From contig PMCS01000018.1 of assembly GCA_003154195.1 (NCBI GenBank), forward strand, positions 44,773-108,772: a DNA stretch of 64,000 nt, read 5' to 3'. The notes beneath the pieces were generated by a model. That model saw only the letters and a list, made by a program, of their open reading frames with translations, ran no database searches and had not been told where the DNA came from. Positions 8,256-63,045 of the stretch are shown piece after piece. The position numbers and the translations under genes are program-made. Positions within the stretch are counted from its first letter, which is position 1, and the number at the start of each line of letters is the position of its first letter. The DNA is from Candidatus Omnitrophota bacterium. Lineage in GTDB: Bacteria; Omnitrophota; Gorgyraeia; Duberdicusellales; 4484-171.

Positions 8256-8627
8256 TTAACCGCCGGAGCGCTTTACGGTAAATCCCCTTCGGGTCAATTC
8301 TGCCAATAAAACATTTCGATGGTCGCCCTGGAGTTCGATTGTACCGTTTTTTATGACGCCGCCGGCGCCCAGTTTCCGTTTAAGTTCTTTTGCCAGTTCC
8401 GCCAGCCCGGTGTGATTTAAAGGTATGCCGGTTACGAGAGTAACTCCCTTTCCCTTGCGGCCTTTGGTTTCTCTTGAGACCCTGACAATTCCGTCATTTT
8501 TTATAATTGTGTTTTTTGTAAACTTAGGGAAGGCGTGGTTTTTACCTGTTGTCCTGCAATCGTGGGAGATATCGCCGCATTCCGTTGAATATACAAGGCG
8601 AGAATCAGGGTTATCGGGAGCGCTCAT
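8256..8627 (-). CDS. yciH: Translation initiation factor SUI1/YciH family
   Basis: DGIVRVSRETKGRKGKGVTLVTG...LKRKLGAGG is typical of the eIF1/SUI1 fold. Confidence 0.8.
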   Translation of the reverse strand: MSAPDNPDSRLVYSTECGDISHDCRTTGKNHAFPKFTKNTIIKNDGIVRVSRETKGRKGKGVTLVTGIPLNHTGLAELAKELKRKLGAGGVIKNGTIELQGDHRNVLLAELTRRGFTVKRSGG

Positions 8628-9898
8628 CTGAATCTATTCGGTTTTTGCCCGGAAGGCCTTCTTGGCCGCCATCCCCTGAACTGTTGCCGGGGATGGTCGC
8701 TGTATTGTTCGGAGGCGATTTCGGGATATTTGGAAACCGGCAGGGTCGCTTTGATGATTTTTTCGATATTCTCCACATCCTGTTTCTGGTCGGGTGTGGC
8801 AAAAGAAATCGCGTGTCCTTTGTTTCCGGCTCGCGCCGTGCGGCCGATGCGATGGACGTAATTTTCGGAGTCCTGCGGGATGTCGTAATTTATTACCACT
8901 TCGATTCCGGTGACATCGATTCCCCTGGCGGCAATATCGGTGGCGACGAGTATCTTGTACCGGCCGGACTTGAAGCCTTCGAGGGCCTGGCAGCGCTGGC
9001 TTAATGACCGGTCGGAATGGATTTCCGCCGCGCGGTGCCCCATGTCTTTGAGGGCTGCGGTGATTTTTCGCGCTTCATGTTTGGTGCGGGAAAATAAAAG
9101 AACGGCTCCGCGGTATTGGTTAAGTAATTTTCCCAGCAGTTTTAATTTCGCGTCGCGCCGGACGATAAATAATTCCTGAGTGATATTTTCCGCGGTAGTG
9201 CCGGACGGCGCGATTTCCACGGAAATAGGAAGTTTCATATGCTGGGACGCGATCGCCATGATTTCTTTAGGCATCGTCGCGGAAAAAAGCATGGTCTGGC
9301 GTTCCCGGGGCATTAATTTCAGTATTTGCTCGATTTGCGGGGCAAACCCCATATCCAGCATCCGGTCGGCTTCATCGAGTACGAGGATGAGCACGTCATC
9401 GGTGGCGATATTTCCTTGCCAGATGTGGTCGATAAATCTTCCCGGCGTGGAGATGATTACGCGCGGGCGTTTGCGCAACGCTTGTATCTGCGGGTTCATC
9501 AGCGCGCCGCCGATCAGACAGGCCGTATGCATCCCAAACGCATGAGTTAATCCCCTGAAGGCTTCGTCGATTTGCATGGCCAGCTCTCGGGTGGGAGCAA
9601 AGATCAGTGCTTTGCCATTTTCCACGGCCAGGCGTTGCACGATGGGGATGGCGAAAGCGTGGGTTTTTCCGGTGCCGGTCTGCGCGATACCGACAACGTC
9701 TTTGCCGGTAAGCGCTAAGGGGATAGCTTTAAGCTGAATTGGCGTGGGGATTTTAAATTTTATCCGTTCCAGGATTTCGAGGATTTTCGGCGCAATGCCT
9801 AAACCGTAAAAACTTGCTCCGGTTTCTTTGTTCTCGCGCGGAATATTTTGGGGATTATTTATTCGATGCGGCATTTTTGTATTATACACCTTAAGCAA
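8624..9898 (-). CDS. DEAD-box ATP-dependent RNA helicase
   Basis: Q motif; AQTGTGKT, PTRELA, DEAD, SAT, HRIGRTARAG motifs; basic C-terminal tail. Confidence 0.9.
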   Translation of the reverse strand: MLKVYNTKMPHRINNPQNIPRENKETGASFYGLGIAPKILEILERIKFKIPTPIQLKAIPLALTGKDVVGIAQTGTGKTHAFAIPIVQRLAVENGKALIFAPTRELAMQIDEAFRGLTHAFGMHTACLIGGALMNPQIQALRKRPRVIISTPGRFIDHIWQGNIATDDVLILVLDEADRMLDMGFAPQIEQILKLMPRERQTMLFSATMPKEIMAIASQHMKLPISVEIAPSGTTAENITQELFIVRRDAKLKLLGKLLNQYRGAVLLFSRTKHEARKITAALKDMGHRAAEIHSDRSLSQRCQALEGFKSGRYKILVATDIAARGIDVTGIEVVINYDIPQDSENYVHRIGRTARAGNKGHAISFATPDQKQDVENIEKIIKATLPVSKYPEIASEQYSDHPRQQFRGWRPRRPSGQKPNRFR

Positions 9899-13717: not shown

Positions 13718-13734
13718 GAGAGTTATTTTAACTT

Positions 13735-13905
13735 ACACGGCCTTGGCGGTCAAGGAGGGAATTTGACGTCAGATAGACAGATGTCAGATAATCAGATATC
13801 AGATAATCGGATAACAGGTATCCGCCATCTGTCGTTCTGCTTATCGGGCATCTGCCTATCTATTTATCTGACACCTGTTTATCTGATACTGGTTTTATAT
13901 CAAAA
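13735..13905. repeat. Imperfect palindrome built from cagata units
   Basis: gacgtcagatagacagatgtcagataatcagatatcagataatcggataacagg ... cctgtttatctgatactgg. Confidence 0.5.
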
Positions 13906-17185: not shown

Positions 17186-17342
17186 AAAAATTACCTCCTT
17201 ATTTTTTTGCTGGCAAAAAAATAATCACTCTTCCGTTTTTACCAACAAAATTATACCAACCAATTCAGTGAAATACTTTTTTCATAATGTATGATTATCT
17301 TTGGGTTAAATAGACCGTCTTCTTAATCTTTTTTTCGTCAAC

Positions 17343-17376
17343 TTATAATTCAAAAAATGCGTTTTCCAACGCATTT
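17343..17376 (-). terminator. Rho-independent terminator downstream of 17383-19299
   Basis: Perfect inverted repeat ttcaaaaaatgcgtt..aacgcattttttgaa with flanking T run. Confidence 0.6.
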
Positions 17377-17382
17377 TTTGAA

Positions 17383-19299
17383 TTATCCGCTCGTATAAAC
17401 CGCGGCGATCAGGTAGGCTTTATATTTTTTACCCTGGTACTCCACAGTATCGGTAACTTTATTCCAATCGACGTTTTCCGTGGCCTTGCCCAGGGTATAA
17501 TTATGCACCAAGTCGTCGTTTTGCTTCTGGCCGTAACCGGCGGCATAAGAAGTCGTGATGTAGTCGCCGGCTTCGATTGGGCCGTTAATGTCGCATACCC
17601 ACACCCGGCCTTCGCCTACCGCATTGACAAAGCCTTTTTGCTCTTTACCTTTGTACCAGTGGCTGTCTAAATCGAATTTTTTCACAAAAACGCCGAGGAT
17701 CGTTTTATCATTAGGCGAATTCGCCAGCTTTACCGTGGGCAAAGTATAGGACAAAGATATTTCGTCCCTACTGTCCTTGCGCAAGCGCGTCTCTCCGGTA
17801 ACGCAGACGATCACCCCCGGTTTAAATGCCGAATAATCTTTGGGTAGTAAACAATCGTGCGCGCCGGTAAAAGTGGCATACTTGACGCCTGGCCCCTGCG
17901 CTAGAAAGTTAGTCCCGTCTCCATTAGATAAAAATGAAACAAGGGTGGTGCCATTGCTTACTACGCCGATTGCCCCTTGAAAAACTCCACCATAATTAAG
18001 TCCCGTACCGGCCACGCCGGTATAGGGATAAATATTATGATCAACTGTGGACCCGCTAGCCTCGCCATAAATACCAAAGCCGGAGTCGGACCGGCCGTCA
18101 ACGCCTTTACCGTTCGAGTTATATCCTAAAATGCCGTCGCCAAGGTCGGTGAAACTCCAACCATAGATACCTTCGTGAGTCTCGCTATAGCCTTTAACTC
18201 CGACACCGTTAGTGCTGCTGCCATAAACACCAAGGGCGTTGGTGCTGTCACCCCAAACACCGCCGCTGAAACCGCCGTCTCCCTTTACACCGTAATCATT
18301 ATTGTCAATACTAGTGCTATGACCATAAACGCCGATCGTCCCCATGCCATATACGCCGTTACCGGTACCTTCGCCATAACCGCTCACGCCATACGATGTT
18401 CCGCGGCCGCATACGCCATCCCCGGATGTTGCAAAGCCAAATACGCCATACGCCCCCCCATTGCCAACCACGCCGGTGTCGCTTAAACCATCGATAATCA
18501 TACCGGCCGCCGCAGTGATACCATACACCCCGGGCCCTCCGTTACCGACTATGCCACTGCCGCTCACATCATAGCCAATAGGGCTTGCCCCAGCAGCCTC
18601 ACCACACATGCCGATTGGCCCCGTGCCATACACGCCATATGTCGCTGTTCCATCGCCATACACACCGGTCGGTCCACTGCCATACACGCCATATGTCGCT
18701 CCTGCGCCGGCCACACCACTGCTGGCGGGCAGAATATCGGGCGCCCCGCCGCCCCGGCCCATTACACCATATGTAGTTCCATAAGCATATACACCATAGG
18801 GGTTTCCGTTGCCATACACGCCCATGGTGTTTGTGGTTGTGCCATACCCCATTACACCGGATGAGGAATCTGCTGTTCCATATCCTTTTACACCGGCGTA
18901 TGTACTAGTGCCATATACGCCAGCCGATGGCCCAGAGCCATACACGCCGTACCCGTTCAGCCCGGTAGCCGTACCATGAATCGCATCGCCGTCCGTGCTT
19001 CTTGATGTATCAAGCGGATAGGCGGGAGTTACCGTCCCGATTCCCACGTTACCTTCAACTATCAAATCGGCGTTGGCGTCTATTGGTGTTCCTGCACCGC
19101 CTGACCAGGTATACAGGGAAGGATTATAATAATTATCGCCGATTGCTATTTTCTTCGCGCGGAGTTCATTATAAACTCCGAACGGCGCGGGATAGTAGGT
19201 GGTAATCGTGATGGTTTCCTGGGCATAAGCGATCAGGGAAAAAATAGCAAGAAGAAAACAAAAAGCGGATAACCTGATTAATCTGGTGGTTATAGTCAT
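17383..19299 (-). CDS. Secreted Gly/Tyr-rich repeat surface protein (tail-fibre-like)
   Basis: Signal peptide. N-terminal TTYYPAPFGVY and GNVGIGTVTP motifs. ~350 aa of YGVYG/GVSGYG repeats; the DNA shows direct repeats such as ccatacacgccatatgtcgct x2. Globular C-terminal ~170 aa. Confidence 0.7.
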   Translation of the reverse strand: MTITTRLIRLSAFCFLLAIFSLIAYAQETITITTYYPAPFGVYNELRAKKIAIGDNYYNPSLYTWSGGAGTPIDANADLIVEGNVGIGTVTPAYPLDTSRSTDGDAIHGTATGLNGYGVYGSGPSAGVYGTSTYAGVKGYGTADSSSGVMGYGTTTNTMGVYGNGNPYGVYAYGTTYGVMGRGGGAPDILPASSGVAGAGATYGVYGSGPTGVYGDGTATYGVYGTGPIGMCGEAAGASPIGYDVSGSGIVGNGGPGVYGITAAAGMIIDGLSDTGVVGNGGAYGVFGFATSGDGVCGRGTSYGVSGYGEGTGNGVYGMGTIGVYGHSTSIDNNDYGVKGDGGFSGGVWGDSTNALGVYGSSTNGVGVKGYSETHEGIYGWSFTDLGDGILGYNSNGKGVDGRSDSGFGIYGEASGSTVDHNIYPYTGVAGTGLNYGGVFQGAIGVVSNGTTLVSFLSNGDGTNFLAQGPGVKYATFTGAHDCLLPKDYSAFKPGVIVCVTGETRLRKDSRDEISLSYTLPTVKLANSPNDKTILGVFVKKFDLDSHWYKGKEQKGFVNAVGEGRVWVCDINGPIEAGDYITTSYAAGYGQKQNDDLVHNYTLGKATENVDWNKVTDTVEYQGKKYKAYLIAAVYTSG

Positions 19300-19522: not shown

Positions 19523-19569
19523 TATGTATACTTTTTATATCGCTATAGCAATATAAAAAGTATACAAAC
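19523..19569. promoter_or_regulatory. Near-perfect 47-bp palindrome (candidate operator), copy 1
   Basis: tgtatactttttatatcgctatagcaatataaaaagtataca. The 30-bp core is repeated at 20661-20693. Confidence 0.5.
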
Positions 19570-21324: not shown

Positions 21325-21445
21325 ATAAAATAAAAACCAAAAGATTTACCACCAAGGCACTAAGCCACAAAAAAGCGACATTAGATGAGGAAAGAATTAT
21401 TTTTTAATCTTAGTGTCTTGGTGTCTTTCTGGCAAAGTTTTTGGT

Positions 21446-22942: not shown

Positions 22943-23091
22943 AAGTTCTCGGCTGTAGAATTTGAATAAAAACCTAAAACCTACCACCAAGACACCAAGG
23001 CATAAAGAAAAGGTGAATTTTCTTGGTGGCTTGGTGTCTTGGTGGTAAATCTTTTGGTTTTATTTTATCTGCGATCATCAGCATTTTCTAA

Positions 23092-24411: not shown

Positions 24412-25171
24412 TGTTTAAACCTCAAAAATAAAACCAAAAACTTACCACCAAGGCACTAAGATTTTTATCACCAAGACACCAAGAAGAAAAAACTTTCTAC
24501 TACCCGCTCGCTTTGTTCGCTGAAGGACACGAAGCTCACGAAAGAAAACAAAAAATAATTTTCAGCCACAGGTTAACACAGATGGACACAGATAAATATA
24601 AAAAAATGTTTCCCGCAAAGTTCGCGAAGAAAATAAAAATCTTTACCGCAGGCACAAAGGATACAAGAAAGCTTCAAGGTATTTCCCGCAAAGGCGCAAA
24701 GTGCGCAAAGAAAAACAAAACTAAAATTTCGCCTGATTGGGCGAGTTCACAGAGAAAAAATATATCTGCCCCGTTTTGCACTATTTTTATTAAACCAATT
24801 TTTTATTCTTTTTCTCTATTTTTAAAAAAATGTTTGTATCTTCCGATTCCACATATTCTGGAGATAGGCAACTTATTTTATCGCCTTTTCTTATTTGTGC
24901 AATTTGCGTGATTCGTTGTTAAAATTTTCCCCTAGTTTTCTTATTTTTTATTTATCTTTTCTTTTTCTTAATCTGCGTAATCTGTGGACAAAAAATTTTT
25001 GTTTTTATTTTTTCTTCGTGAGCTTCGTGCTCTTCAGCGAGTACTCAAGCGGGTGGTGAAAATTATTTTCCCAATTTTTTATCCTGTCCATCCGTGTTCA
25101 TCTGTGGCCAATAATTCTAGGTCTTATTTTTTTGTGTCTTTGTGCCTTCGTGGTAAATCTTTTGGTTCTGT
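24412..25171. repeat. Nested inverted-repeat element in a 760-bp non-coding gap
   Basis: Outer arms accaccaaggcactaag (24447-) and gtgccttcgtggtaaatcttttgg (25143-). Inner arms cccgctcgctttgttcgctgaaggacacgaagctcacgaa (24503-) and ttcgtgagcttcgtgctcttcagcgagtactcaagcgggtgg (25017-). Internal cacagat / atctgtggac motifs. Confidence 0.6.
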
Positions 25172-27209: not shown

Positions 27210-27579
27210 TTATTCGTCGAAGCCCTTTCCTTCCAGGTATTTTGCCAGGGCCAGCGTGCTGATAAAGCTTTGCAGCGTCCAGGCAATCGCGATGTCAATA
27301 TACCATGACCGTCCGGTGGGGATGGTAAGGATCGCGCATAGCCCCACGAGCATAACGCCTAAAATATCCAGAACGACGATCCGGTCGGCTCCCGTCGGGC
27401 CTTTAATCAGGCGCCAGAGCAGCAGCAAACAGCAAAGCAAAAGGATAAACAGCGCCCGGCCGAAAAAAGCGACATGAGGCAAGTCGTGATAAAAAAGAAA
27501 CGGCAGAGGTTTTATAATGATCAACCCGATTGCCGACATTAAAGCTATTGCTCCGATAAACCACTTCAATCTTTTCATG
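27210..27579 (-). CDS. mrpF: Mrp antiporter-module subunit F
   Basis: RLIKGPTGADRIVVLDILG, the MnhF signature. Start set at MKRLKW, which is directly preceded by the recurrent start-proximal palindrome. Confidence 0.8.
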
Positions 27580-27645
27580 TTATTCCCCTTATTTTTTTGC
27601 TTAGCAAAAAAATAATTATATAAAAAAATTCCGGAGGGAATTTTT

Positions 27646-28143
27646 TTATTCAAAAATCTTTTTCAACAGCGGTTCGAACTTACCCGCAATCAGCCGTGTC
27701 GCGGTTTCGCTGTCTTCGGCCTTAACGTTAATCCAGTGAATATATAAAATACCTTTATCTTTATCGATATTGACGCACATCGTTCCCGGAATAAGGGTAA
27801 TTGAATTGGCTAAAAAAGTAAGCCCGATATCGCTGGTCAACGATGTTTTTATCTGAACGATCCCCGGGTTAATCGGCAGGTCAGGATGCAGAATACGCCA
27901 GGCAGCGTCAATATTGGCTTTGAGGCACTGCCAGGCAAATAATGGTAAGTAGCCGATTAAAAAATACCCCCAGCGAGAAGGGCGCGTGAACAATCGCGTT
28001 CCGTCGATAAATAAATCGCCGCAGAGTAAAGCCGTCAAGCCGGCCGCGGCAATGCCCGCTAAAAGATGCTGGCTGTCCGGCGGCCAGGATAAAAGCATCC
28101 AAATCGCTAAAGCGGCGATGAATAAAGCTAACCTGCGCCTCAC
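27646..28143 (-). CDS. mrpE: Mrp antiporter-module subunit E
   Basis: SITLIPGTMCVNID, MnhE-like. Confidence 0.8.
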   Translation of the reverse strand: MRRRLALFIAALAIWMLLSWPPDSQHLLAGIAAAGLTALLCGDLFIDGTRLFTRPSRWGYFLIGYLPLFAWQCLKANIDAAWRILHPDLPINPGIVQIKTSLTSDIGLTFLANSITLIPGTMCVNIDKDKGILYIHWINVKAEDSETATRLIAGKFEPLLKKIFE

Positions 28144-36263: not shown

Positions 36264-36830
36264 TTACGCTTTATCTCTATCCCAGTGTATCGAATGAACG
36301 ATCAAGTTATCGCCCGCTAAAAATGTATTTTTATCCAACTCGCTATCGGCCTTAACTAGTTTTACCGCGCTATAGGGACAAGTCTTTATGCACAGCGGTT
36401 CGTCTTTTTCATTTCTCCGGTCAAGACAAAAGTCGCAGGCGTGGATTAAAAACGGGACACTCTCCGGATAAATCGTGCCGTAGGGGCAGGCGTGCGAACA
36501 TGATTTACAGCTGACGCAGCGCATATTATGGCGAATCAGTAATTTGTTTTTATCTTTTTGCTGTTCAAGAGCTTCCCGGGGGCACGCCGCGACGCAGTGC
36601 GGTTCTTCGCAGCGGCGGCAAACCAGAAAATACGTTGCCAGCTCTCTGATAGAAGTAATGCCGTTATTGCCCTGGTTTTGACGGTGATATAAATAACTGC
36701 ATTTTATCACGCATTCTTTACAGAGGCTGCCGGAACAGATATCGAGATCGACATAGAGCCGCACGTCGTTTCCTTTCTGCGGGGTTACGTTGGTTTTTCC
36801 TTCGTGTATTTGCTGCGCGCTATTATCCAT
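36264..36830 (-). CDS. Polyferredoxin-type Fe-S protein
   Basis: Multiple Cys clusters: CKECVIKC, CRRCEEPHCVAACP, CVSCKSCSHACP, CDFCLD...CIKTCP. Confidence 0.7.
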   Translation of the reverse strand: MDNSAQQIHEGKTNVTPQKGNDVRLYVDLDICSGSLCKECVIKCSYLYHRQNQGNNGITSIRELATYFLVCRRCEEPHCVAACPREALEQQKDKNKLLIRHNMRCVSCKSCSHACPYGTIYPESVPFLIHACDFCLDRRNEKDEPLCIKTCPYSAVKLVKADSELDKNTFLAGDNLIVHSIHWDRDKA

Positions 36831-36928
36831 AATTTTTTGCTCCGCAAAAAATTATCCGCATCCCCTTAGGGATGAGGAGAGACATTAAAATTGTTATTGA
36901 ACTTTTTTTCAGTTTTCGTTTTCTGCAA

Positions 36929-36984
36929 ATCCGCTCGTAGGCGGATTTATTTCTAAAATGATTATGCGGTTTACCGCATAATCA
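36929..36984 (-). terminator. Tandem stem-loops downstream of 36987-37874
   Basis: aaatccgctcgtaggcggattt and aaaatgattatgcggtttaccgcataatcatttt. Confidence 0.5.
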
Positions 36985-36986
36985 TT

Positions 36987-37814
36987 TTAGTCCCAGAGCT
37001 CATGAAAATTCTTTATCTGGTTATAGGTAAACACCGGTCCGTCTTTGCAGCAATAGTATGTTCCCAGGCGGCAGTGGCCGCATTTGCCGATGCCGCAGGA
37101 CATATTTTTTTCCATCGAAAGATAAAGATTATCTTCCTTAAAACCGAGCCCCAGTAATTTCAGGGTTACAAATTTCATCATGATCGGCGGCCCGCAAACA
37201 ATAGCTATGCCGCCTGGGCAATCCATTTCCAAATTTTCTAAAATTGTCGTAACCAGGCCGACATTGCCCTGCCATCCTTCTTCGCTTTTATCGACCGTAA
37301 TTTTAAAATCCAGCGCGTGCTGTTTCGGCCATTCGCTGATCTCATTCTTATATACCAGTTCTCTGGGATTTTTACAGCCGCCGCGAAAAATAAGATTTTT
37401 CAATTCGCCGCGCATTTCAAAAAGAGTATACATCAGGCTTCGGATCGGGGCAAAACCGCAGCCGCCGCCTACGACCAGGACTTCCCGGTTTTTGAATTTA
37501 TCGGTAGGATAACCGTTGCCCAGGGGGCCGCGCACTCCGATAATATCGCCGGGTTTCAGCAAGTGGATTTTCGATGTTACCTTACCGACTTTCATCACCG
37601 TCACTTCCATGATTTCTTTTACCGACGGCCGCGAGGACGGCGTAAAAAACGCTTCTCCGGACCCGGGAATAGTAATCGCGACAAATTGGCCGGTGCGAAA
37701 TTCCATTAGTTCCTTAGGCCGGAAACGAATGGTTATAATCGTAGGCGTTTCCGGGATAACTTCAAGCACCTGCGCTTCGATCGGCCGATAAGGATTCTCT
37801 TCTTTGCTGGGCAT
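36987..37814 (-). CDS. FAD/NAD(P)-binding [2Fe-2S] oxidoreductase subunit (PyrK/AsrB/sulfhydrogenase-gamma-like)
   Basis: Ferredoxin-reductase fold (RFRP...GQFV; GPLGNG; VVGGGCGFAP). C-terminal CGIGKCGHCRLG...C [2Fe-2S] motif. Start set at MPSKEEN. Confidence 0.75.
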   Translation of the reverse strand: MPSKEENPYRPIEAQVLEVIPETPTIITIRFRPKELMEFRTGQFVAITIPGSGEAFFTPSSRPSVKEIMEVTVMKVGKVTSKIHLLKPGDIIGVRGPLGNGYPTDKFKNREVLVVGGGCGFAPIRSLMYTLFEMRGELKNLIFRGGCKNPRELVYKNEISEWPKQHALDFKITVDKSEEGWQGNVGLVTTILENLEMDCPGGIAIVCGPPIMMKFVTLKLLGLGFKEDNLYLSMEKNMSCGIGKCGHCRLGTYYCCKDGPVFTYNQIKNFHELWD

Positions 37815-46071: not shown

Positions 46072-46074
46072 TAG

Positions 46075-46215
46075 TTCTTCATAAATAAGGCTATCGGGAT
46101 ATCGGGGTATCAGGATTTGGATATTAGGGGACTGGGATATTAGGTATTTCCTAATACCCTAATCGCCTAATTCCCAAATCCTAATTTCCCGATTTACCAA
46201 TCCCCTTCTTTTAGA
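46075..46215. repeat. Imperfect palindrome built from gggatattagg/cctaat units
   Basis: ggatattaggggactgggatattaggtatttcctaataccctaatcgcctaattcccaaatcc. Confidence 0.55.
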
Positions 46216-46217
46216 GC

Positions 46218-48290: not shown

Positions 48291-48299
48291 TTAGTTATG

Positions 48300-48448
48300 T
48301 CCTCTTTGATGATTTTGAATGTCGGTAAAGGTTATGGTAACGATGCCAGTATGGGTTATGGCTACGGTTAAGGCTGCAAATTCGTATTAGCCTTAACCAT
48401 TACCTTTACCTAAACGGGCTTCGTAACCTTAGCCTTAACCTAGCAGTA
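48300..48448. repeat. ~100-bp ggttatgg/ggttaagg palindromic repeat, copy A
   Basis: atgccagtatgggttatggctacggttaaggctgcaaattcgtattagccttaaccattacctttacctaaacgggcttcgtaaccttagcc is near-identical to 50320-50420. Confidence 0.65.
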
Positions 48449-50254: not shown

Positions 50255-50269
50255 ATTTTTAAAAAACGG

Positions 50270-50470
50270 TTAGGGCAAAGGCAATGATGCCGTTAAAACT
50301 TGGCTAGGGCAAAGGTAATGATGCCAGTATGGGTTATGGCTACGGTTAAGGCTGCAAATTCGTATTAGCCTTAACCATTACCTTTACCTAAACGGGCTTC
50401 GTAACCTTAGCCCTAGCCGGTTTTTTACCGGCATCCTAACCCTGGCCATAGCCCGGTATTTATCATACCG
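50270..50470. repeat. ~100-bp ggttatgg/ggttaagg palindromic repeat, copy B (plus partial extra units)
   Basis: See copy A; includes the flanking ggcaaaggcaatgatgcc units. Confidence 0.65.
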
Positions 50471-50496
50471 GCTTCGTTATCCTAGCTTTAGCCTAA

Positions 50497-51516
50497 TCAT
50501 TTTATTAAACAATTTTCTACTTCTCGTAAGAAATTTTCGCTGTCTTCGATTATCATCTCTATATCCATGACGATTACCCGTATTTTCCCCGGCGGTAAAC
50601 CGGGAAGATGGTATTTATCTTTGCGGGTTATTATTATATCGTTTATTCCTTCATCTGCCAGCTCATTCTGAATTTTCTCGAATTCCTTTTCGCTTAATTC
50701 ATAGTGATCGGGGTAAGTTATTTTTTTCGCCACTTTTACCCCTTCTTTGCTAAGCATCTGGAAAAAACCATCGGGGTATCCGATAGCGGTAAGCGCCGCT
50801 GTGGGGCGGCCGCTAAAATCCCCGGAGTTAACGATATTATCCCGCAAATCGCAAAATTTTTTTATTTTATACCCGGAGGTAAATATTTTTAAATGAGGGG
50901 ACTTCTTTTTTGTTTCGGACTTGAATTCATTGAGGCCGGCCGCTTGCTCAGCGTGGTTAATAACAAGTATATTCGCGCGCTTTAACGAAGACAGCGGTTC
51001 GCGAAAGATTTGCGCCGGAATCAACCGGCGGGGAAGTTTTAATTCTCGCGCGCCCATCACTACAATATCGCATTGCCGGGCGAGCTTGCGGTATTGGAAA
51101 CCGTCATCAAGAATAAAAACGCCGTACTTTTCCGATAATTTTCCGGCTAACGCCGCCCGGTTTTTATCCGCGTAGACTATCGCCCCACTTTGTTCGATTA
51201 ATTTATTTTCATCGTCGCCGTATCCGCGGCGCAATATCGCGATTTTATAGCGCGCGGATAATTTTTGGTATAAATATAACGTGAGAGTTGTTTTACCGGT
51301 TCCTCCCCACGAAAGATTCCCGACACTGATTATTTTTTTTGTCGAATAAAAAATAGGGGTTATTTTTTTATCGTAAGCGAAATTGCGGATACCGACAACC
51401 GCGCCGTAAATCCCGGATAAAAATATCAACAAAGCGCGGAATAATACCGCGGCAATGTTTTTGTCATCACCGGCGAGGAAATCCACATACCATTGTTTTA
51501 ATCCAGATTTAAGCAT
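50497..51516 (-). CDS. lpxK: Tetraacyldisaccharide 4'-kinase
   Basis: VGNLSWGGTGKTTLTLYL P-loop; LpxK length and topology. Confidence 0.85.
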   Translation of the reverse strand: MLKSGLKQWYVDFLAGDDKNIAAVLFRALLIFLSGIYGAVVGIRNFAYDKKITPIFYSTKKIISVGNLSWGGTGKTTLTLYLYQKLSARYKIAILRRGYGDDENKLIEQSGAIVYADKNRAALAGKLSEKYGVFILDDGFQYRKLARQCDIVVMGARELKLPRRLIPAQIFREPLSSLKRANILVINHAEQAAGLNEFKSETKKKSPHLKIFTSGYKIKKFCDLRDNIVNSGDFSGRPTAALTAIGYPDGFFQMLSKEGVKVAKKITYPDHYELSEKEFEKIQNELADEGINDIIITRKDKYHLPGLPPGKIRVIVMDIEMIIEDSENFLREVENCLIK

Positions 51517-52829
51517 GATATTATTAATTTAACGTTATTTTCCGTGGCGCCGGTTTGCTCACGAAACACCTTAGCGCAATTCTTTTGTAATTTTTCGCGT
51601 TCGTCTTTATCGTTGATCAATAATATTAGTTTTGATGTTAATTCTTCCGTATCTCTTACCTGAATCCCCGCTTTTTCCGCATGGACAATTTCGGCGATAT
51701 CGCTGAAATTGTCCATGAACGGTCCGAAAATCGTCGGCTTTCCTAACGATATCGGTTCTAAAATATTTTGCCCGCCATGCTTTACCAGGCTGCCGCCGAC
51801 AAAACAAATATCGCTCAGCGCATAAAAATAGAGTAATTCGCCGATAGTGTCGAGCAAAAATACGGTATCGTTATTAACTTCGTTTTTTTTTGCCGCGCTC
51901 AGGCGTAGGGGTTTTAACCCTTCCGCGATTATCAGTTTTTCGATTTCCGGCGTTCTTTCGATGTGACGCGGCGCGATAATCAGCTTAATATCGCTGCGCT
52001 TCTTCCGGATTTCCTTGTACGCTCGCAGTGCGTATTCTTCTTCCGGACAATGGGTGCTGGCTGCAATTAAAACGATATTCCCCGGCGGAGCGATAATCCC
52101 GGAATATTTTACTTTAACTTTGGTCAGCGTATTGTTATCGAGATTTATATTATCGAACTTCATGTTACCGGTAATTTTTATCTTACTTTCGGGACAACCT
52201 AAGTCAATAAAGCGTTGCCGGTATTCTTCATTTTGAACCGCGACTATGGCGCATTCTTTTAACGCGTATTGCACGATAAATTTAAAACGTTTATAGCGAT
52301 TGATAGCTTTATCGGAAATTCTTGCGTTAATAATCGCAATCGGTATGTTTTTCCGCGATAAGCGAAAAAACAGATTGGGCCATATTTCTGTTTCCACGGC
52401 GATGAAAATTTTTAAATTGAACGTTTTAATAACGTGCCTGATAGCAAACGAGATATCGAAAGGGAAAAAAATTATTTTCGCCCGGCCGGGATACCTTTTT
52501 TTAGCTAAGCGATTGCCGGTTAAAGTGGTGGCAGAAATTATAATCTCGTAATCGCCGTATTCTTTCAGTTGTTTCAGTAAACCGTCTAAAAGATTGACTT
52601 CGCCGACGCTTACCGCCTGAATCCAGATACATTTTTTTCCCGGCGGCGGCGCCGGTTTGGTATCGGTAAACCCCAATTTTTCCTTCAGGGCGGCGAAAGT
52701 TATTTTTTTGCGCCAGAAATAAACCGGGAGATATACGATTAGCCCGGCAAAAAAAATAATATCGTAAAAAAAGAAAACGATATTTTCGATAAAAGCTTGG
52801 GATTGATTTTTTTCGGTTATATCGGGCAT
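51498..52829 (-). CDS. waaA: 3-deoxy-D-manno-octulosonic acid (Kdo) transferase
   Basis: N-terminal TM; IWIQAVSVGEVN (HxxSxGE variant). Confidence 0.85.
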   Translation of the reverse strand: MPDITEKNQSQAFIENIVFFFYDIIFFAGLIVYLPVYFWRKKITFAALKEKLGFTDTKPAPPPGKKCIWIQAVSVGEVNLLDGLLKQLKEYGDYEIIISATTLTGNRLAKKRYPGRAKIIFFPFDISFAIRHVIKTFNLKIFIAVETEIWPNLFFRLSRKNIPIAIINARISDKAINRYKRFKFIVQYALKECAIVAVQNEEYRQRFIDLGCPESKIKITGNMKFDNINLDNNTLTKVKVKYSGIIAPPGNIVLIAASTHCPEEEYALRAYKEIRKKRSDIKLIIAPRHIERTPEIEKLIIAEGLKPLRLSAAKKNEVNNDTVFLLDTIGELLYFYALSDICFVGGSLVKHGGQNILEPISLGKPTIFGPFMDNFSDIAEIVHAEKAGIQVRDTEELTSKLILLINDKDEREKLQKNCAKVFREQTGATENNVKLIISCLNLD

Positions 52830-52936: not shown

Positions 52937-53812
52937 TTAAGCCCGCGGATGTGCCTTGTCATAAACTTTTTTCAACGTATCCATGGTTAAATGGGTATAG
53001 ATTTGCGTCGTCGCGATGCTGGAATGGCCTAATAGTTCCTGGACGCTGCGCAAATCCGCGCCGTGATTCAGCAGGTGCGTGGCGAATGAATGGCGAAAGG
53101 TATGCGGTGAAATACTCAAAGTGATTGACGTCTGGTGTATATATTTGTTAACAATATTTCGTACGCTACGGTCGGTCAGGCTTCCCAGCCGTTTGTTTAC
53201 TAATAAGGAAGGATTTTTATCATTTCGGCGGTCGATATATTTTTTTAACGCTATAATTGCCGGTTCCCCCAGGGGCAAAAGCCGTTCTTTTTTTCCCTTG
53301 CCGATAACCTTTGCGATTCCGCTGATTAAGTCAACATCGTTAATTTTTAGCGATACCAGCTCCGCGACTCGCGCGCCGGTAGAATAAAGCGTTTCCAGTA
53401 TCGCTTTATCTCTTAGCGTCATGATATCGTCGCCTTTGGGGGCGTTTAGAATCCGAGAGATATCTTCTTCGGTTAAAAACTTCGGCAAAGGTTTGTCGAG
53501 TTTAGGGTAAATTAAAGATACCGCCGGGTTATTTTTCATTTCCCCTTCTTTTACCATGAATTTAAAAAAACTTTTCAGGGTGGAAATTTTTCGCGATAAG
53601 GTCCGTTTATTGAATTTTTTTTCGCTCAACGAACTCAAAAACTTACGTAAAAGAAAATAATCGATATCTTTTATGTCTTTCCCGCCGGAAGATTGGAGAA
53701 AGGCATTGAATCCGCGAAGGTCGATCTCGTAGTTTATGATGGTATGGGATGAGTAATTTTTCTCGATATTGAGGTAATTGAGGAATTTGTCGGTGTAATA
53801 GGAGAAAGGTAT
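52937..53812 (-). CDS. Tyrosine site-specific recombinase XerC/XerD
   Basis: C-terminal HTFRHSFATHLLNHGADLRSVQELLGHSSIATTQIYTH. Start set at MIPFSYY because the start-proximal palindrome sits directly upstream of it; the ORF track gives a longer 53893 start. Confidence 0.8.
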   Translation of the reverse strand: MPFSYYTDKFLNYLNIEKNYSSHTIINYEIDLRGFNAFLQSSGGKDIKDIDYFLLRKFLSSLSEKKFNKRTLSRKISTLKSFFKFMVKEGEMKNNPAVSLIYPKLDKPLPKFLTEEDISRILNAPKGDDIMTLRDKAILETLYSTGARVAELVSLKINDVDLISGIAKVIGKGKKERLLPLGEPAIIALKKYIDRRNDKNPSLLVNKRLGSLTDRSVRNIVNKYIHQTSITLSISPHTFRHSFATHLLNHGADLRSVQELLGHSSIATTQIYTHLTMDTLKKVYDKAHPRA

Positions 53813-54036
53813 CATTTTTTTGCTCCGCAAAAAAATCTGTTCATCCGCTTCGCCCCGATACGCCTGAATATCGCGAAAATCTCTTTCAGACATTTTCGCG
53901 AAGCTTTCGGGACTCCGCTTATGCTTCGCGGATGAAAAGGCAGCCTATTTTGCTGGGGGATACCGGCGATATCAATATCGGTTATCGATAGAATAGGGCC
54001 TTTATCCCGTTAGTACGGTTAGTGAGGCGATTTATG

Positions 54037-56512: not shown

Positions 56513-57595
56513 TTATTCTCTGCCGACCGGCGTTTTGATAAAACGCGACGGCGCGGCTTCTTTTATTAATCCTTTCAACTGCAGGCCCAGAATGATCTTA
56601 TTTATCGTTGCCGGCGTTAGTTTAGTTTGACGCATGATCTCTTCGATATATGTCCCGCTGGAGCAAATTGTATCGAAAACTATTCTTTCATCCTTGTCGA
56701 TGTTTATTGTTTGCCCGCCATCTTCCTTTTTAAAATCAATATTAAGCTCTTCGATTATATCTTCTATGGAGTCGACTAATTTTGCCCCGTCTTTTATAAG
56801 GCTATGGCCGCCCTTGCTTAACGGCGAATCGGCGTTACCGGGAAGAGCGAAAACCTCCCGGTTTTGCTCCATGGCCAGGCGCGCGGTGATGAGCGCGCCG
56901 CTTTTGGCCGCTGCCTCCACGACTAAAACTCCATGCGACAGGCCGCTGACAATGCGGTTACGCCGGGGAAAATTTTCCTTTAACGGCGGCGTACCCAGGG
57001 GGAATTCGCTGATTAAGGCTCCCTGAGAGCATATTTGTCCGGCTAAGCGGATATTCTCTCGCGGATATATATTCAGTAATCCGCTGCCTAAAACCGCGAC
57101 GGTTTCACCGTTACGCAAAGCCGCTTTGTGGGCCGCGGTGTCAATCCCCCGCGCCAATCCCGAAACAACCGTAATGCCTAACGATGCTAATTTATAGGAG
57201 AATTCCTCGGCCATGGAAATCCCGTATAGCGTAGGAAGCCGCGTGCCGACGACCGCAAATAAAAATTTATTTAACGCCGCAATATTGCCTTTTACGTATA
57301 AAACAAGCGGCGGCCGGCTTATTTCTTTCAGGATGTTGGGATAATCCACGTCAAAAATATCAATAACGTTAATTTTTTCTTTTTCAATGAGCTTTAATTC
57401 TTTTTCCAGAGAACCGGAATCCCGTACCTGCAGGATTTTTTCGATATCTTTTTCATCGAGAGAGGCGATTGATTTGAATTCCGGCCCCTGGGCTTGGAGT
57501 ATTTTATCGGTATCGTCAAAAAACTTTATTATGTCTTCAGTTTTTTGAGGTGCTAAATCAACGAGATTTAAAAGTATCGAACCGGTCTTAGCCAT
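56513..57595 (-). CDS. dprA: DNA processing protein DprA (Smf)
   Basis: Rossmann-like DprA domain (VVSGLARGIDTAAH...); C-terminal winged-helix. Confidence 0.85.
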   Translation of the reverse strand: MAKTGSILLNLVDLAPQKTEDIIKFFDDTDKILQAQGPEFKSIASLDEKDIEKILQVRDSGSLEKELKLIEKEKINVIDIFDVDYPNILKEISRPPLVLYVKGNIAALNKFLFAVVGTRLPTLYGISMAEEFSYKLASLGITVVSGLARGIDTAAHKAALRNGETVAVLGSGLLNIYPRENIRLAGQICSQGALISEFPLGTPPLKENFPRRNRIVSGLSHGVLVVEAAAKSGALITARLAMEQNREVFALPGNADSPLSKGGHSLIKDGAKLVDSIEDIIEELNIDFKKEDGGQTINIDKDERIVFDTICSSGTYIEEIMRQTKLTPATINKIILGLQLKGLIKEAAPSRFIKTPVGRE

Positions 57596-58109
57596 TTTTA
57601 TTTTTTTCTCCGCAAAAAATAAAAATAATTTCGTTTGCGATTTTTTGCGGAGTTTTATTTTTTGTGTTTATAAAATAATGCGCTTTCCGGTAATAAGGTT
57701 TGCGGTATCTTAATAGTTGCTGTATCCGCTTCAACGGATTTGCGACATCAAGCAAGGGGCGTCTTTTTGTTTTTTTTATCCGTTCCCAGATAACCGATGC
57801 CGGAGCGGTAAGGTTAACGATTATTCCGGTATTGCGCATAATCTCGGCGTTTTCTTTATTGCAGATTACGCCGCCGCCGCAACTGATTACCAACTTGTTT
57901 TTCCGGGAAATTTTTTTGAGTAATTTATTTTCCAACTTACGGAAATAGGTTTCGCCTTTAGCCTTGAAAATATTTCTTATTGTCTGTTTTTCGTTTTTTT
58001 CGATTGTCCGGTCCATTTCGATAAACTCCCGGCGCATTTTTCGCGCAAGAAATTTACCCACGGTAGTCTTGCCCGTGCCCATGAAACCAACGAGATAGAT
58101 ATTGTTCAT
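57588..58109 (-). CDS. aroK: Shikimate kinase
   Basis: NIYLVGFMGTGKTTVGKFLA P-loop; SCGGG. Confidence 0.8.
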   Translation of the reverse strand: MNNIYLVGFMGTGKTTVGKFLARKMRREFIEMDRTIEKNEKQTIRNIFKAKGETYFRKLENKLLKKISRKNKLVISCGGGVICNKENAEIMRNTGIIVNLTAPASVIWERIKKTKRRPLLDVANPLKRIQQLLRYRKPYYRKAHYFINTKNKTPQKIANEIIFIFCGEKNKNG

Positions 58110-59438: not shown

Positions 59439-59537
59439 TCGGTCCCTCCTTTTAATAGCGCCATAGCGTCAAAGTGTCAGAGCATCAGAGCGTCAGATCA
59501 GAGAAGAGTTTAATTTCGATGTTGCTTTGACACTGTT

Positions 59538-59999
59538 TTATTGTTTTGCAAAACGAAAAATAACCGCCTTTTCGTTACAATTGGGAAACGAGACGCAGTT
59601 GATGCAGTCGCTCCATATTTTATGGGGCAAATCTTTCTTGTCGACTTCCGTAAACCCCTGTTTTTTAAAGAATCCGTCTACAAAAGTAAGGGCAAATATA
59701 TTTTTTAAACCGAGCTGCTTTGCTTCTTCCAGGCACTGCCGGACTAATTTTACTCCGATGCCGCGCTTTTGATAATTTTTAGCCACCGCCAACGACTTGA
59801 CTTCGGCTAAATCTTCCCAGCCGATGATGTGCAGGGCGCAGCAGCCGCAGACCTTGCCTTTATCAGTATACACCCAGAAATCGCGGATATGTTCATAAAT
59901 ATAATTTAGCGAACGCTCCAGCAGCTTTCCCTTTTTTGCCCAAAAGGCAAGAAGGTCGTAAATTCCCTTAGCATCGTCGATTGCAGCTTTTCTCAGCAT
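59538..59999 (-). CDS. GNAT-family N-acetyltransferase
   Basis: CALHIIGWEDLAEVKSLAVAKNYQKRGIGVKLV acetyl-CoA motif. Start set at MLRKAAIDD. Confidence 0.65.
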   Translation of the reverse strand: MLRKAAIDDAKGIYDLLAFWAKKGKLLERSLNYIYEHIRDFWVYTDKGKVCGCCALHIIGWEDLAEVKSLAVAKNYQKRGIGVKLVRQCLEEAKQLGLKNIFALTFVDGFFKKQGFTEVDKKDLPHKIWSDCINCVSFPNCNEKAVIFRFAKQ

Positions 60000-60120
60000 A
60001 ATCAAAGAATTGTAATCCGATTTAACCCTAATGTCAACCCGAAAAACGTAAATTTTCAGAAAACAAAGGGCTGGATACATTATCCAGCCCTTATAAATAT
60101 CGACGTTTGCCTGGTTGTCG

Positions 60121-61564: not shown

Positions 61565-61622
61565 TATTTTCTTAAATCCGCCGCAGGCGGATAGGCTATA
61601 AAAATATTGCGGCATACCGCAA
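61565..61622 (-). terminator. Tandem stem-loops downstream of 61628-62899
   Basis: aatccgccgcaggcggat and aaaatattgcggcataccgcaatatttt. Same two-hairpin architecture as at 36929-36984. Confidence 0.5.
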
Positions 61623-61627
61623 TATTT

Positions 61628-62899
61628 TTATTCGTACTTAATTTCGTCTAAATAGAATACTATACCATTTCCGCCATTAACGTCGGTGTTGGTTGCCCAG
61701 CAAAAACCGCCGATTATGTAAGAAAGGTCGCGGCCGGTCAGGTCGATTTCGTATTGTTTCCATTCGGTCGTTAAGGTAATCGGCCCGATGCTGTTGCTGT
61801 CGGAGTCGATATAGTCGCCGCTGGAGATGCCGCCGATTTTGAATTCGTTGATGACTTCCCCGCCCTTATCGCCTCTTACCCAGAAGGTAAGTTTTTTCGC
61901 GCCGGTTAAATTAAAACCCGTCTTAGGAACTGTCCCCCAGTTATTGGCCGGTTGCTGCCAGAAAATTCCTGCCCAGCCGGTTCCCGACTTATTTTCATAT
62001 TCGACGCGGATACAGGTTTGGCCGCTAAAGGGAAGGTTTTTCCATTTAGGGTCGAACTTTAAGTCTTTGGCCGCCGTCGCCGGCATCCAGCCGCTGGGGA
62101 TATAGTGGTTGTCCAGCGAACCGGCGTCGGAATAGACATAAAACGGGAAATTTATCTTCTTTTCCGTTTTCTTTAAATCTTTTTCATAAACGTAACCGAT
62201 ATTGTCGAGGTAAATGGTTTGTTCTCCGCCGGCCTGGTCGGCATTAAAAACGAGACACAATCCGCCGTTTACGTAAGAAAGGTCTTCTCCCGCCAGGTTA
62301 AGGGAAAACTCCTGCCACTCTTTGGTTAATTTATAGGGGCCGTTTTCTACGCTCAGGGAGTCAGCGTAAGGAAGCGGTTCGTTGGTCGTCTGGTTTTTAG
62401 TAATGCCCCCGATTTTGGCGATAGTAATGACTTCGCCGCCGTTTTTCCCGCGCGCCTTAAATGTAAGTTTATTAAAACCGCTTAAGTCATAACCGGTATT
62501 TTTTGTTCCCCAGTTATTTTGGGCCGATTGCCAGTAGATACCCGCCCAGCCCTGTCCGGCTGATTTTTTTGCGCTATAAACAATCTTAAGACAGGTAGCG
62601 CCGCTGGCCGGATTATCGGTGGACTGATCGCTAAATTGTAAATCGTTGACATCGCCCATCCAACCGCTGGGGATAAAATGATTTCCCGTAGCGCTTTTTT
62701 CGGTGAAAATATCAAACTTTTCGCCGGTTACTTTTTTCGCTTTTTTCTCCGGCAGCGCGGGGGGGGTAACGGGAGCCGCCGCGGGAGCGGCTTCTGCCGC
62801 TATATTTCCTGTTTGCGTGGTTGTGTTTACGGCTTGCGCGAAAGCCACAAAGCTGAATAGCCCCAATCCTAAAAGTGTTAACCCAAGAATCTTATGCAT
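61628..62899 (-). CDS. Secreted protein with two tandem ~170-aa beta-sandwich (CBM-like) domains
   Basis: Signal peptide. Internal duplication (HFIPSGWMGD...GWAGIYWQ...NNWGT...LTFKARGKNGGEV vs HYIPSGWMPA...GWAGIFWQ...NNWGT...LTFWVRGDKGGEV). Confidence 0.5.
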   Translation of the reverse strand: MHKILGLTLLGLGLFSFVAFAQAVNTTTQTGNIAAEAAPAAAPVTPPALPEKKAKKVTGEKFDIFTEKSATGNHFIPSGWMGDVNDLQFSDQSTDNPASGATCLKIVYSAKKSAGQGWAGIYWQSAQNNWGTKNTGYDLSGFNKLTFKARGKNGGEVITIAKIGGITKNQTTNEPLPYADSLSVENGPYKLTKEWQEFSLNLAGEDLSYVNGGLCLVFNADQAGGEQTIYLDNIGYVYEKDLKKTEKKINFPFYVYSDAGSLDNHYIPSGWMPATAAKDLKFDPKWKNLPFSGQTCIRVEYENKSGTGWAGIFWQQPANNWGTVPKTGFNLTGAKKLTFWVRGDKGGEVINEFKIGGISSGDYIDSDSNSIGPITLTTEWKQYEIDLTGRDLSYIIGGFCWATNTDVNGGNGIVFYLDEIKYE

Positions 62900-62924
62900 T
62901 GTTTCCGACCTCCTTCTTTTTAAG

Positions 62925-63045
62925 GATATCCAGGTATTGGGTAATTAGGATTTGGTGATTAGCCTATTGGGATATTAGGCGATATCCCCAATTTCCTAAT
63001 CTCCAAATCTCCAAATCCTGATACCCTGATGTCCTAATATCCCTC
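62925..63045. repeat. Imperfect palindrome built from gggatattagg/cctaat units
   Basis: ggtaattaggatttggtgattagcctattgggatattaggcgatatccccaatttcctaatctccaaatcc...cctaatatccc. Confidence 0.55.

Follow-up and report, generated by a model that had tools for sequence, protein, structure and literature searches.

Why should unrelated genes of one bacterium carry the same kind of AT-rich palindrome against their start codons? The question arises from a 64,000-nt stretch of a Candidatus Omnitrophota contig (PMCS01000018.1; hereafter the window), for which an earlier note, made from the sequence alone, had described a recurrent palindrome, T6-7GC-N3-5-GCA6-7, immediately upstream of five genes. Recurrent palindromes are indeed present at all five loci as perfect inverted repeats, and together with other contigs of the same organism (~125 kb of DNA in total) they define a real, lineage-specific and previously undescribed family of AU-rich perfect hairpins abutting start codons. 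As to their role, the reading that we prefer, tentatively and at somewhat less than even confidence, is that they are cis-acting mRNA hairpins occluding the translation initiation region.

Perfect inverted repeats at start codons

Essentially all of the ~60 genes in the window lie on the minus strand, and on this coding strand the five repeats form 10-13 bp stems of the form (W)TA-T6-7-GC / GC-A6-7-TA(W) (Table 1). As the note had proposed, the genes downstream are unrelated, Pfam assigning them to a hypothetical protein, MrpF, a 4Fe-4S protein, a tyrosine recombinase and DprA. Three stems end at -2 nt, overlapping the AT of the ATG, and the other two end 10 and 13 nt before it with a Shine-Dalgarno sequence (SD) in between; in three instances, the GGAG at the hairpin centre is the SD itself. 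Four copies are intergenic, with the upstream stop 30-200 nt away and the downstream start at -2 to 13 nt, and the fifth sits within the aroK open reading frame (ORF).

Chance is excluded as the origin of these palindromes. T5GC-N0-8-GCA5 has four matches in the window for 0.05 expected from shuffled sequences, and T6GC-N3-5-GCA6 three for 0.00 expected. On the coding strand of the window's intergenic DNA, the half-sites TTTTTGC and GCAAAAA never stand solitary beside a start. The motif as first written proved literal in two instances only (TTATTTTTTTGC...GCAAAAAAATAA, with N2 and N3 spacers), the others being variants (ATAAT6GC, AT7GC, AT5AT6). Two start coordinates also needed correction, the ATG codons of mrpF and xerC/D having been placed at 27579 and 53812 (see Table 1); the latter start, now at 53815, is backed by alignment to E. 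coli XerD. That of the 4Fe-4S gene at 36830 is ambiguous, other annotations taking a GTG 22 codons downstream.

Table 1. Hairpins and other features discussed in the text (window coordinates unless a contig is named)
Feature	Position	Strand	Structure	Minus strand through the start	Context
Hairpin 1	17199-17224	minus	12-bp stem, loop CA; TTATTTTTTTGC-CA-GCAAAAAAATAA; perfect-stem scan	TTATTTTTTTGC-CA-GCAAAAAAATAA, then GGAGGTAATTTTT, then ATG	3' SD GGAGG 17198-17194, 8-nt spacer, ATG 17185-17183; 187-aa hypothetical protein gene
Hairpin 2	27589-27615	minus	13-bp stem with loop A, or 12 bp with loop TAA; TTATTTTTTTGC-TAA-GCAAAAAAATAA; perfect-stem scan	TTATTTTTTTGC-TAA-GCAAAAAAATAA, then GGGGAATAAC, then ATG	3' SD-like run GGGG, then mrpF ATG 27578-27576
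Hairpin 3	36829-36855	minus	12-bp stem, loop GGA; ATAATTTTTTGC-GGA-GCAAAAAATTAT; perfect-stem scan	ATAATTTTTTGC-GGA-GCAAAAAATT(AT)G	loop + closing G = GGAG, 9 nt 5' of ATG 36830-36828; 4Fe-4S protein gene; last two stem pairs contain A and T of ATG
Hairpin 4	53814-53836	minus	10-bp stem, loop GGA; ATTTTTTTGC-GGA-GCAAAAAAAT; perfect-stem scan	ATTTTTTTGC-GGA-GCAAAAAA(AT)G	GGAG 7 nt 5' of xerC/D-like ATG 53815-53813; stem takes in A and T of ATG
Hairpin 5	57594-57626	minus	13-bp stem, loop GCGGAGA; ATTTTTATTTTTT-GCGGAGA-AAAAAATAAAAAT; perfect-stem scan	ATTTTTATTTTTT-GCGGAGA-AAAAAATAAAA(AT)G	loop GGAG 12 nt 5' of dprA ATG 57595-57593; overlaps final codons of aroK (57588-58109)
Inverted half-copy upstream of hairpin 5	57641-57652	minus	CTCCGCAAAAAA, inverted copy of TTTTTTGCGGAG (57608-57619)		
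A-first terminator-type hairpins	17345-17386, 27620-27649, 36953-36990, 61598-61631				at stops of upstream genes
6-bp hairpin	36859-36874				3 nt upstream of hairpin 3
Structured repeat, ~76-85 nt	window 53837-53965	minus	…GCGAAGCGTAAGCGGAGTCCCGAAAGC-stem-GTCYGAARGRG-stem-ATATTCAGGCGYATCGGG…		~85-130 nt, upstream of hairpin 4
Structured repeat, other sites	L110 2945-3125; L167 9785-9900				
Degenerate-repeat regions	46072-46217, 62900-63033, 21325-21445, 22991-23091, 24412-24520, 48291-48448, 50255-50496, 13718-13859, 59439-59537				intergenic
GC-rich hairpin	60066-60092		perfect 12 bp, AAGGGCTGGATA-ATG-TATCCAGCCCTT		28 nt past upstream stop; acetyltransferase gene 59538-60080
Split T-first repeat	52700-52759		TTATTTTTTT(GC)…35-40 nt…(GC)AAAAAAATAA		in kdtA-like gene 51498-52829
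16-bp perfect inverted repeat	19525-19566		TGTATACTTTTTATAT-N10-ATATAAAAAGTATACA		436-nt gap upstream of gene 17383-19299
DEAD-box helicase gene	8624-9898				followed by the next gene, 4-nt overlap
SUI1/YciH-type translation factor gene	8256-8627				
attC-like 19-mer apex contigs	L053, L058, L067, L097, L108, L120, L125, L127, L140, L146, L154, L160				

Beyond the window, further contigs from the same samples were reached through a metagenome scan for T6GCGGAGCA6 and most likely belong to the same organism. The ~125 kb hold 14 members, 13 of which adjoin a start codon or an SD as single copies, and the association with starts claimed from the window alone is thus borne out. The additional members precede a sigma-70-family gene, a Memo-like gene, a doubtful 51-codon ORF, accB, valS, nadC and uvrB, and an imperfect one with a 3-nt bulge lies upstream of a solute-binding-protein gene. 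Measured from the stem 3' end, the start codon lies at -2 nt in five members, 0 in three and +1 in one; in the remaining four start-linked members the stem ends 9-13 nt away, and the SD fills the gap. The previous stop is 158-584 nt distant for valS, nadC, uvrB, Memo, xerC and hairpin 1, and in 8 of 12 members a second hairpin stands 3-5 nt upstream. About one gene in ten is served in this way, and at a density of about one copy per 9 kb a whole genome would contain a few hundred. A structured repeat (Table 1), single or as a tandem pair, immediately precedes the xerC, nadC and Memo-like hairpins; its four copies show compensatory changes in 5 of 25 predicted pairs, and it has no Rfam match.

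TopA assigns the window to Candidatus Omnitrophota, and the lineage is isolated, since the nearest TopA among genomes is 65% identical and the nearest among 5.8 billion proteins 66%. Contigs identical or 99% identical to the window were found in peat metagenomes, and the hairpins are unchanged in strains L001-L004, L165 (hairpin 2 included), L166 and L176, with 99-100% identity across them. When a covariance model built from 12 copies was searched across the sampled loci, all matches with E < 0.01 fell in this organism, plus the motif-scan loci L076 and L159, and none was found in the ~700 kb of loci linked through TopA, ~90 kb of which come from other Omnitrophota. The element is lineage-specific. 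A literature search on Omnitrophota together with SD or palindromes found nothing relevant, and we know of no prior description of such a hairpin family. Their position is itself atypical, because in a survey of 118,019 genomes (PMC13155455) bacterial perfect inverted repeats are most frequent ~50 bp before the translation start and become abruptly scarcer at the start itself.

Arms, loops and pairing

We call T-first a palindrome that reads its T-run first on both strands, and A-first one made of an A-tract, a stem and a T-tract. The T-first arms follow the consensus TA-T5-7-RC / GY-A5-7-TA, and their flanks differ from copy to copy (e.g., TTA, ATAA, ATAT, ATATTTA, ACGTTTA), each being mirrored exactly. 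A centre TTTRC-N3-GYAAA is common to 9 of 12 copies, equivalent arm positions are 17-21 bp apart and loops range from 1 to 12 nt. Across 12 paralogous copies (120 pair cells), Watson-Crick pairs occupy 98.3% of the cells; four of the ten pairs have changed on both sides (A-U to U-A, G-C to A-U) and none on one side. No shuffle reached the covariation score of these copies, and pairing falls to ~60% once the partner is shifted by one column. Outside the perfect stem, pairing is at chance level.

The loops are mostly of the C-GNA-G type, a proportion much higher than the 12.5% that random triloops would give. GNA loops read GGA or GAA on the coding strand, and GGA, GCA and GTA on the template strand in three copies. 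Of 13 members, 5 have a GGA loop when read on the coding strand; other loops are CA, UAA, GAA, UCC, UGC, UAC and GUA, and the four members devoid of any SD have GAA, UCC, UGC and GAA. In this organism, GGAG-type loops favour the coding-strand orientation 5:1, and in the five GGAG-loop members GGAG or AGGAG lies 7-12 nt from the ATG. The metagenome scan, seeded with one exact 19-mer, gives figures that hold among the matches listed and carry no frequency basis; there, an ORF start within 20 nt accompanies 20 cases in the GGAG orientation versus 8 in the opposite one. Given this orientation bias and the SD-like spacing, the loop must be in RNA.

RNA folding at each element yielded the U-rich/A-rich hairpin that had been expected to adjoin or include the ribosome-binding site (RBS) region, and the hairpins are present in predicted minimum-free-energy folds. 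Folded in isolation, they have a predicted dG of -5 to -16 kcal/mol at 37 °C; at 10 °C the range is -11 to -25 kcal/mol. The dprA locus is more elaborate. Of the two copies announced there, one is a full hairpin (hairpin 5, within the aroK 3' end) and the upstream one an inverted half-copy, recognised from four counted copies of TTTTTGCGGAG. A long-range helix between CTCCGCAAAAAA and TTTTTTGCGGAG, predicted at 12-13 bp, would pair CUCC with the dprA SD and bury it; this helix is the predicted minimum-free-energy fold of 57580-57670 (-16.1 kcal/mol, z = -3.2). Hairpin 5 and the long-range helix are thus predicted to be mutually exclusive alternative structures.

The same 19-mer, T6GCGGAGCA6, has a wider distribution than the family. 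Among the matches listed, the exact 19-mer followed by ATG occurs in other lineages of 41-65% GC, one of them belonging to a protein cluster that takes its name from Candidatus Auribacterota and the PVC group. It also forms the apex of an attC-like repeat family (ends ATAACAA…GCGTTAT; Table 1), directly follows tRNA 3' ends in L072, L095, L134, L150, L096 and L158, tops long hairpins, and appears in many unrelated contexts and phyla.

Message, promoter or DNA palindrome

Evidence for an element carried in mRNA comes from its position. Transcription of the dprA element follows directly from its location inside the aroK ORF. The elements of the 187-aa gene and of valS are probably transcribed as well: an extended -10 box, TGGTATAAT, at 17258-17250 would place hairpin 1 about 19-44 nt into the 5' untranslated region (UTR), and the valS member lies ~100 nt downstream of TTGTAT-N17-TATAAT, both motifs being read by eye and absent from the promoter-scan output. 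One copy inside an ORF and two well downstream of good -10 boxes argue for an element carried in the mRNA, as do the several members that stand 3-5 nt past another hairpin and leave no room for a promoter. Because GGAG is oriented and spaced as an SD and the stem ends within 2 nt of the AUG or SD, the element would act on initiation. We infer that the RNA form, rather than the DNA form, is the functional one, and that its effect is probably repressive and relievable. Among the functions first suggested, a translational control element is the best supported (transcribed position, GGAG as SD, U-run against an A-rich leader), the function itself being a prediction. A thermosensor stays at the level of a possibility: predicted stability shifts with temperature, and the genes are ordinary housekeeping ones.

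The translation signals of the organism provide the background for such an element. An SD-like core no more than 25 nt from the start is present in only 13 of 46 other window genes (~28%), leaving 33 without. The 20 nt preceding starts contain 40% A and 14% C, against 30% A and 24% C farther upstream. With such A-rich, C-poor leaders as the norm, the hairpin's A-run is a normal leader in exaggerated form, and the U-run is the exact complement of that A-run.

On the preferred reading, the organism would initiate mostly without a strong SD, from A-rich, C-poor leaders. At roughly one gene in ten, a U-run located 2-7 nt upstream exactly complements the leader's A-run. The two would pair in a perfect helix of 10-16 bp, topped by two G-C (or A-U/G-C) pairs with a compact C-GNA-G loop. 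With the start codon or the first G of the SD at its 3' base, the helix would mask the landing pad at a fixed unfolding cost; in the GGAG-loop subclass, the hairpin apex would carry the SD. Opening might be achieved by ribosomal protein S1, a DEAD-box helicase or temperature and, at aroK-dprA, by the ribosome completing the upstream gene, the net result being a translational throttle or gate on mostly low-abundance housekeeping genes. The window encodes a DEAD-box helicase and, overlapping it, a SUI1/YciH-type translation factor (Pfam; Table 1), which are speculative candidates for trans-factors opening structured leaders. A wider proposal, to which we give only a small chance, is that a few hundred genome-wide 'anti-leader' U-runs lock A-rich leaders into perfect hairpins ending exactly at the AUG and so provide a regulon-independent control. 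Translation of ~10% of genes would then depend on a single melting activity (a helicase, S1 or temperature), or else the hairpins would serve as punctuation where long co-directional transcripts are divided into leaderless or SD-proximal mRNAs. The punctuation version would be the bacterial counterpart of the tRNA punctuation known from mitochondria.

Several observations weigh against an action in mRNA. Not one G·U pair or one-sided change was found in 120 pair cells, and the stems end abruptly; strict Watson-Crick pairing with sharp ends looks more like DNA-level palindromy, or a very recent origin, than long-term selection on RNA alone. The C-GNA-G preference is seen on either strand, three members having it on the template, a pattern that would not be expected from an RNA-only role. 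At cold-peat temperature the helices are predicted to be very stable (10 °C values above), a difficulty for essential genes (valS and accB, for example) if nothing actively opens the helices. The groES copy adjoins a -35 box and cannot belong to the groES mRNA, and in the related lineage L076 two of four members lie just past stop codons. Transcription starts rest on consensus motifs, the promoter scans of the window being at chance level. Finally, orthologous covariation is unobtainable, because related strains are identical and the next relatives, at 66% TopA identity, lack hairpins of this kind.

Part of this evidence suits a dispersed family of DNA palindromes resembling repetitive extragenic palindromes (REP), made or kept perfect by some DNA-level process, for instance template-switch correction of quasi-palindromes or a mobilising enzyme. 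Copies would be tolerated or useful at starts, where they supply an A-rich leader and sometimes GGAG, and any RNA effect would be secondary. A common arm consensus, (TT)TA-T5-7-RC, a density extrapolating to a few hundred copies per genome, strict complementarity with sharp ends and without G·U, loops facing either direction, and members at other boundaries (the groES -35 box, the L076 stop codons) all agree with it, as does the recurrence of the exact 19-mer, among the matches listed, in many phyla and unrelated settings such as attC-like repeats and the 3' ends of tRNAs. Yet 13 of the 14 copies touch a start codon or SD within 2 nt, where classic REPs follow 3' ends; the copies are not near-identical, all loops and flanks differing; the called genes of the sampled loci (~125 kb) include no REP-associated tyrosine transposase (RAYT) or Y1 transposase; the window has no tandem or mosaic-like clusters; and the GGAG orientation bias indicates RNA-level selection. 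We regard this explanation as unlikely, with an appreciable chance nonetheless. If the palindromes were kept perfect mutationally, their docking at functional signals would be an unusual case of niche selection by a repeat element.

The groES member also bears on a second DNA-level explanation. With 16-bp arms and a 12-nt loop, it stands directly against the TTGACA of a consensus TTGACA-N16-TATAAT promoter (L170 17894-18070), which is followed in the groES/groEL promoter region by a CIRCE-like half-site, TTAGCACTC-N9-GATTGCTGA. UP elements are known by a T-tract, a short spacer and an A-tract, a pattern that the palindromes resemble, and d(GCGAAGC)-type loops are exceptionally stable. The palindromes could then be operators of a dimeric regulator, cruciform or supercoiling sensors, or UP-like A/T-tracts bound by RNA polymerase alpha. 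The centre TTTRC-N3-GYAAA shared by 9 of 12 copies, the exact UP-element position at groES, and AT-rich perfect arms with 3-nt spacers and C-GNA-G loops, ideal for cruciform extrusion, would be in keeping with such sites. An UP-like element, however, which the earlier note had listed, fits that one member outside the window and none of the five inside, where every copy is at a start codon, no -35/-10 follows it and promoter scans do not rise above chance. The global-regulator site offered in the same place is disfavoured: arm length and arm spacing (17-21 bp) vary, loops span 1-12 nt, and pairing is perfect over 10-16 bp of varying sequence, through unrelated flanks of up to 16 bp per arm that protein recognition does not need. 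The genes have no common functional theme either, and we find a DNA-level site of these kinds quite improbable. LexA/SOS boxes were rejected on the gene set (mrpF, accB, nadC and others), which is not SOS-like; SOS-like hints are the TTAC-N3-GTAA variants upstream of valS and of the sigma-factor gene, as well as the GGA-loop copy that precedes uvrB. DNA uptake sequences (DUS/USS) were likewise set aside, the copies being strictly intergenic and start-adjacent, unlike these.

The left arm could itself be a promoter -10 box (TAWTTT, i.e., TAnnnT), with transcription starting at the loop purine and the right arm as a short A-rich leader. Every left arm does have TATTTT, TAATTT or GATTTT, and a purine in or next to the loop lies 6 nt past the hexamer in nearly all members (Memo has C). 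But no consistent -35 or TG extension accompanies it, scans are at chance, and a start in the loop would truncate the very GGAG whose orientation bias indicates an SD. The perfect complementarity of leader and promoter would go unexplained, a palindrome would fire equally on the opposite strand, hairpin 5 is inside a gene, and ordinary TTGACA/TATAAT promoters exist elsewhere in the organism; this reading is highly improbable. Three other promoter types were rejected: a Bacteroidetes-type promoter (TAnnTTTG at -7), raised since several copies are without SD, in view of the Omnitrophota host, its ordinary TTGACA/TATAAT promoters and a spacing misfit; a leaderless promoter with its -10 in the right arm, on inconsistent A at -11 and T at -7 (checked by hand); and a sigma-54 promoter (-24/-12), the GG not being at the required distance.

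The hairpins upstream of the palindromes raise the matter of RNA processing. Hairpin 2, for instance, is within the mrp operon, 4 nt past an A-first hairpin that overlaps the mrpE stop codon. The palindromes might be RNA punctuation: once long co-directional transcripts had been cut by an endonuclease, they would mark and protect the 5' end of the message that follows; the upstream hairpin would protect the preceding 3' end, and cleavage near the 3' base of the palindrome would yield leaderless or SD-proximal mRNAs. Nearly all ~60 window genes on one strand, another hairpin 3-5 nt upstream in 8 of 12 members, a stem base matching the AUG or SD within 2 nt and four members without any SD would all be accommodated. 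However, hairpin 1 and the valS member seem to have their own upstream promoters, and a hairpin left on the AUG would hinder initiation rather than help it; we consider punctuation rather doubtful. Two related ideas were discarded. A by-product of a terminator U-tract meeting an A-rich RBS accounts for the T-run and A-run in metagenome loci L062, L132, L107 and L159, but leaves mirrored interruptions and flanks (TTTA/TAAA, ACG/CGT) unexplained and fails for copies far from any upstream hairpin (valS, hairpin 1). A terminator 'hairpin cluster' (PMC8355165) was dismissed as the copies track the downstream start, not the stop, which is 158-584 nt away.

If the hairpins do act on mRNA as preferred here, they would show initiation tuning in a low-SD bacterium of a barely studied phylum, by a simple copyable module in which a U-run covers the A-rich landing pad as far as the start codon. 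Such a module is testable in reporter systems and could be a portable, insulated RBS throttle. The elements also mislead gene callers, adding 26-30 codons to xerC and nadC, and they mark true start codons in metagenome-assembled genomes of this lineage. The overextended calls are 318 aa instead of 292 for xerC (52937-53893) and 319 instead of 289 for nadC (L110/L170), which run through the hairpin and the structured repeat because the frame happens to stay open.

Other repeats and hairpins were noticed in the same DNA. Many intergenic regions of the window consist of degenerate 6-11-nt repeats folding into long imperfect hairpins (e.g., ggatttgggaattagg…cctaatatccc, ccaccaagacaccaag/cttggtggcttggtg, ccttaaccgtagccataaccc, tatctgatatctgattatctgac, ctctgatctgacgctctgatgc), a style also found in L050, L076, L062, L132, L107 and L106, across 41-65% GC. 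The 3-nt loop of the GC-rich hairpin at 60066-60092 is the called ATG of the acetyltransferase gene. The split T-first repeat of the kdtA-like gene has 9-10-bp arms and lies in coding sequence, 70-130 nt past the gene start, and a perfect 16-bp inverted repeat occupies another intergenic gap (Table 1). In a 38% GC contig (L098 1-300), a tandem array of ~75-nt units combines a T-first hairpin (loops GAA, GGA, GAA, TTC) with a second conserved hairpin (GTTCGCAG…CTGCGAAC).

Comparison with known systems

Rfam 15 returned no match at gathering threshold in the window, L050, L110, L076 or L159, apart from one tRNA, and at E <= 1 a single irrelevant weak match (23.6 bits versus a threshold of 208). 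Like intrinsic terminators, the palindromes are hairpins with A- and U-tracts, but with inverted polarity: the U-tract comes first, as the 5' arm, the A-tract forms the 3' arm, and on neither strand does a U-tail follow the stem. A terminator scan found none at any of the five loci, and stop-proximal sites are held by A-first hairpins instead.

With REP and bacterial interspersed mosaic elements (BIME) they share a short length (23-35 nt), an extragenic location, a recognisable consensus, many copies per genome (here 14 in ~125 kb) and lineage specificity. Unlike these, they are AT-rich, perfect, single and unclustered, and stand against start codons rather than after 3' ends or between convergent genes (13 of 14 at gene 5' ends). 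No conserved GTAG-type flank or 5' tetranucleotide is visible, and no Y1_Tnp domain was found in called genes of the sampled loci (~125 kb).

The sites of DNA-binding proteins offer partial parallels. The succession of T-tract and A-tract, and the groES member against its -35 TTGACA, recall promoter UP elements, which lie at about -40 to -60, immediately 5' of a -35 hexamer; the window copies, in contrast, are at start codons and not at -35 boxes, and UP elements are not palindromes. Operators of dimeric transcription factors, whose conserved half-sites keep a fixed distance, differ, as arm spacing here varies over 17-21 bp and symmetry runs through variable flanks. The sigma-70 -10 pattern TAWTTT is present in every left arm, and scans found no -35 or TG.

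Among RNA-level systems, CsrA/RsmA sites resemble the 5 of 13 members in which a short SD-overlapping hairpin 5' of the AUG presents GGA in its loop; the other loops lack GGA, the loops are triloops in place of the usual A(N)GGA(N) hexaloop, and no csrA gene was noticed, no search aimed at it having been made. Functionally closest are the RBS-occluding 5'-UTR hairpins and translational operators, such as the MS2 replicase operator and the fourU and ROSE thermometers. There are differences: poly-U pairs with the poly-A spacer and not with the SD, which, if present, is in the loop; the stems are perfect, without the bulges or G·U pairs of thermometers; and the palindromes occur at ~10% of genes with unrelated functions, unlike operators of a single regulon. 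None corresponds to a fourU thermometer, in which a U-stretch pairs with the AGGA of the SD and mismatches or G·U pairs let the stem melt over a physiological range: here the U-run pairs with an A-run, GGAG lies within the loop or past the stem, and no G·U is found. What the palindromes have in common with RBS-occluding hairpins is a local stem-loop over the SD, the spacer or the AUG, with the AUG at the 3' base of the stem, a predicted temperature-dependent stability and, at dprA, two predicted exclusive folds.

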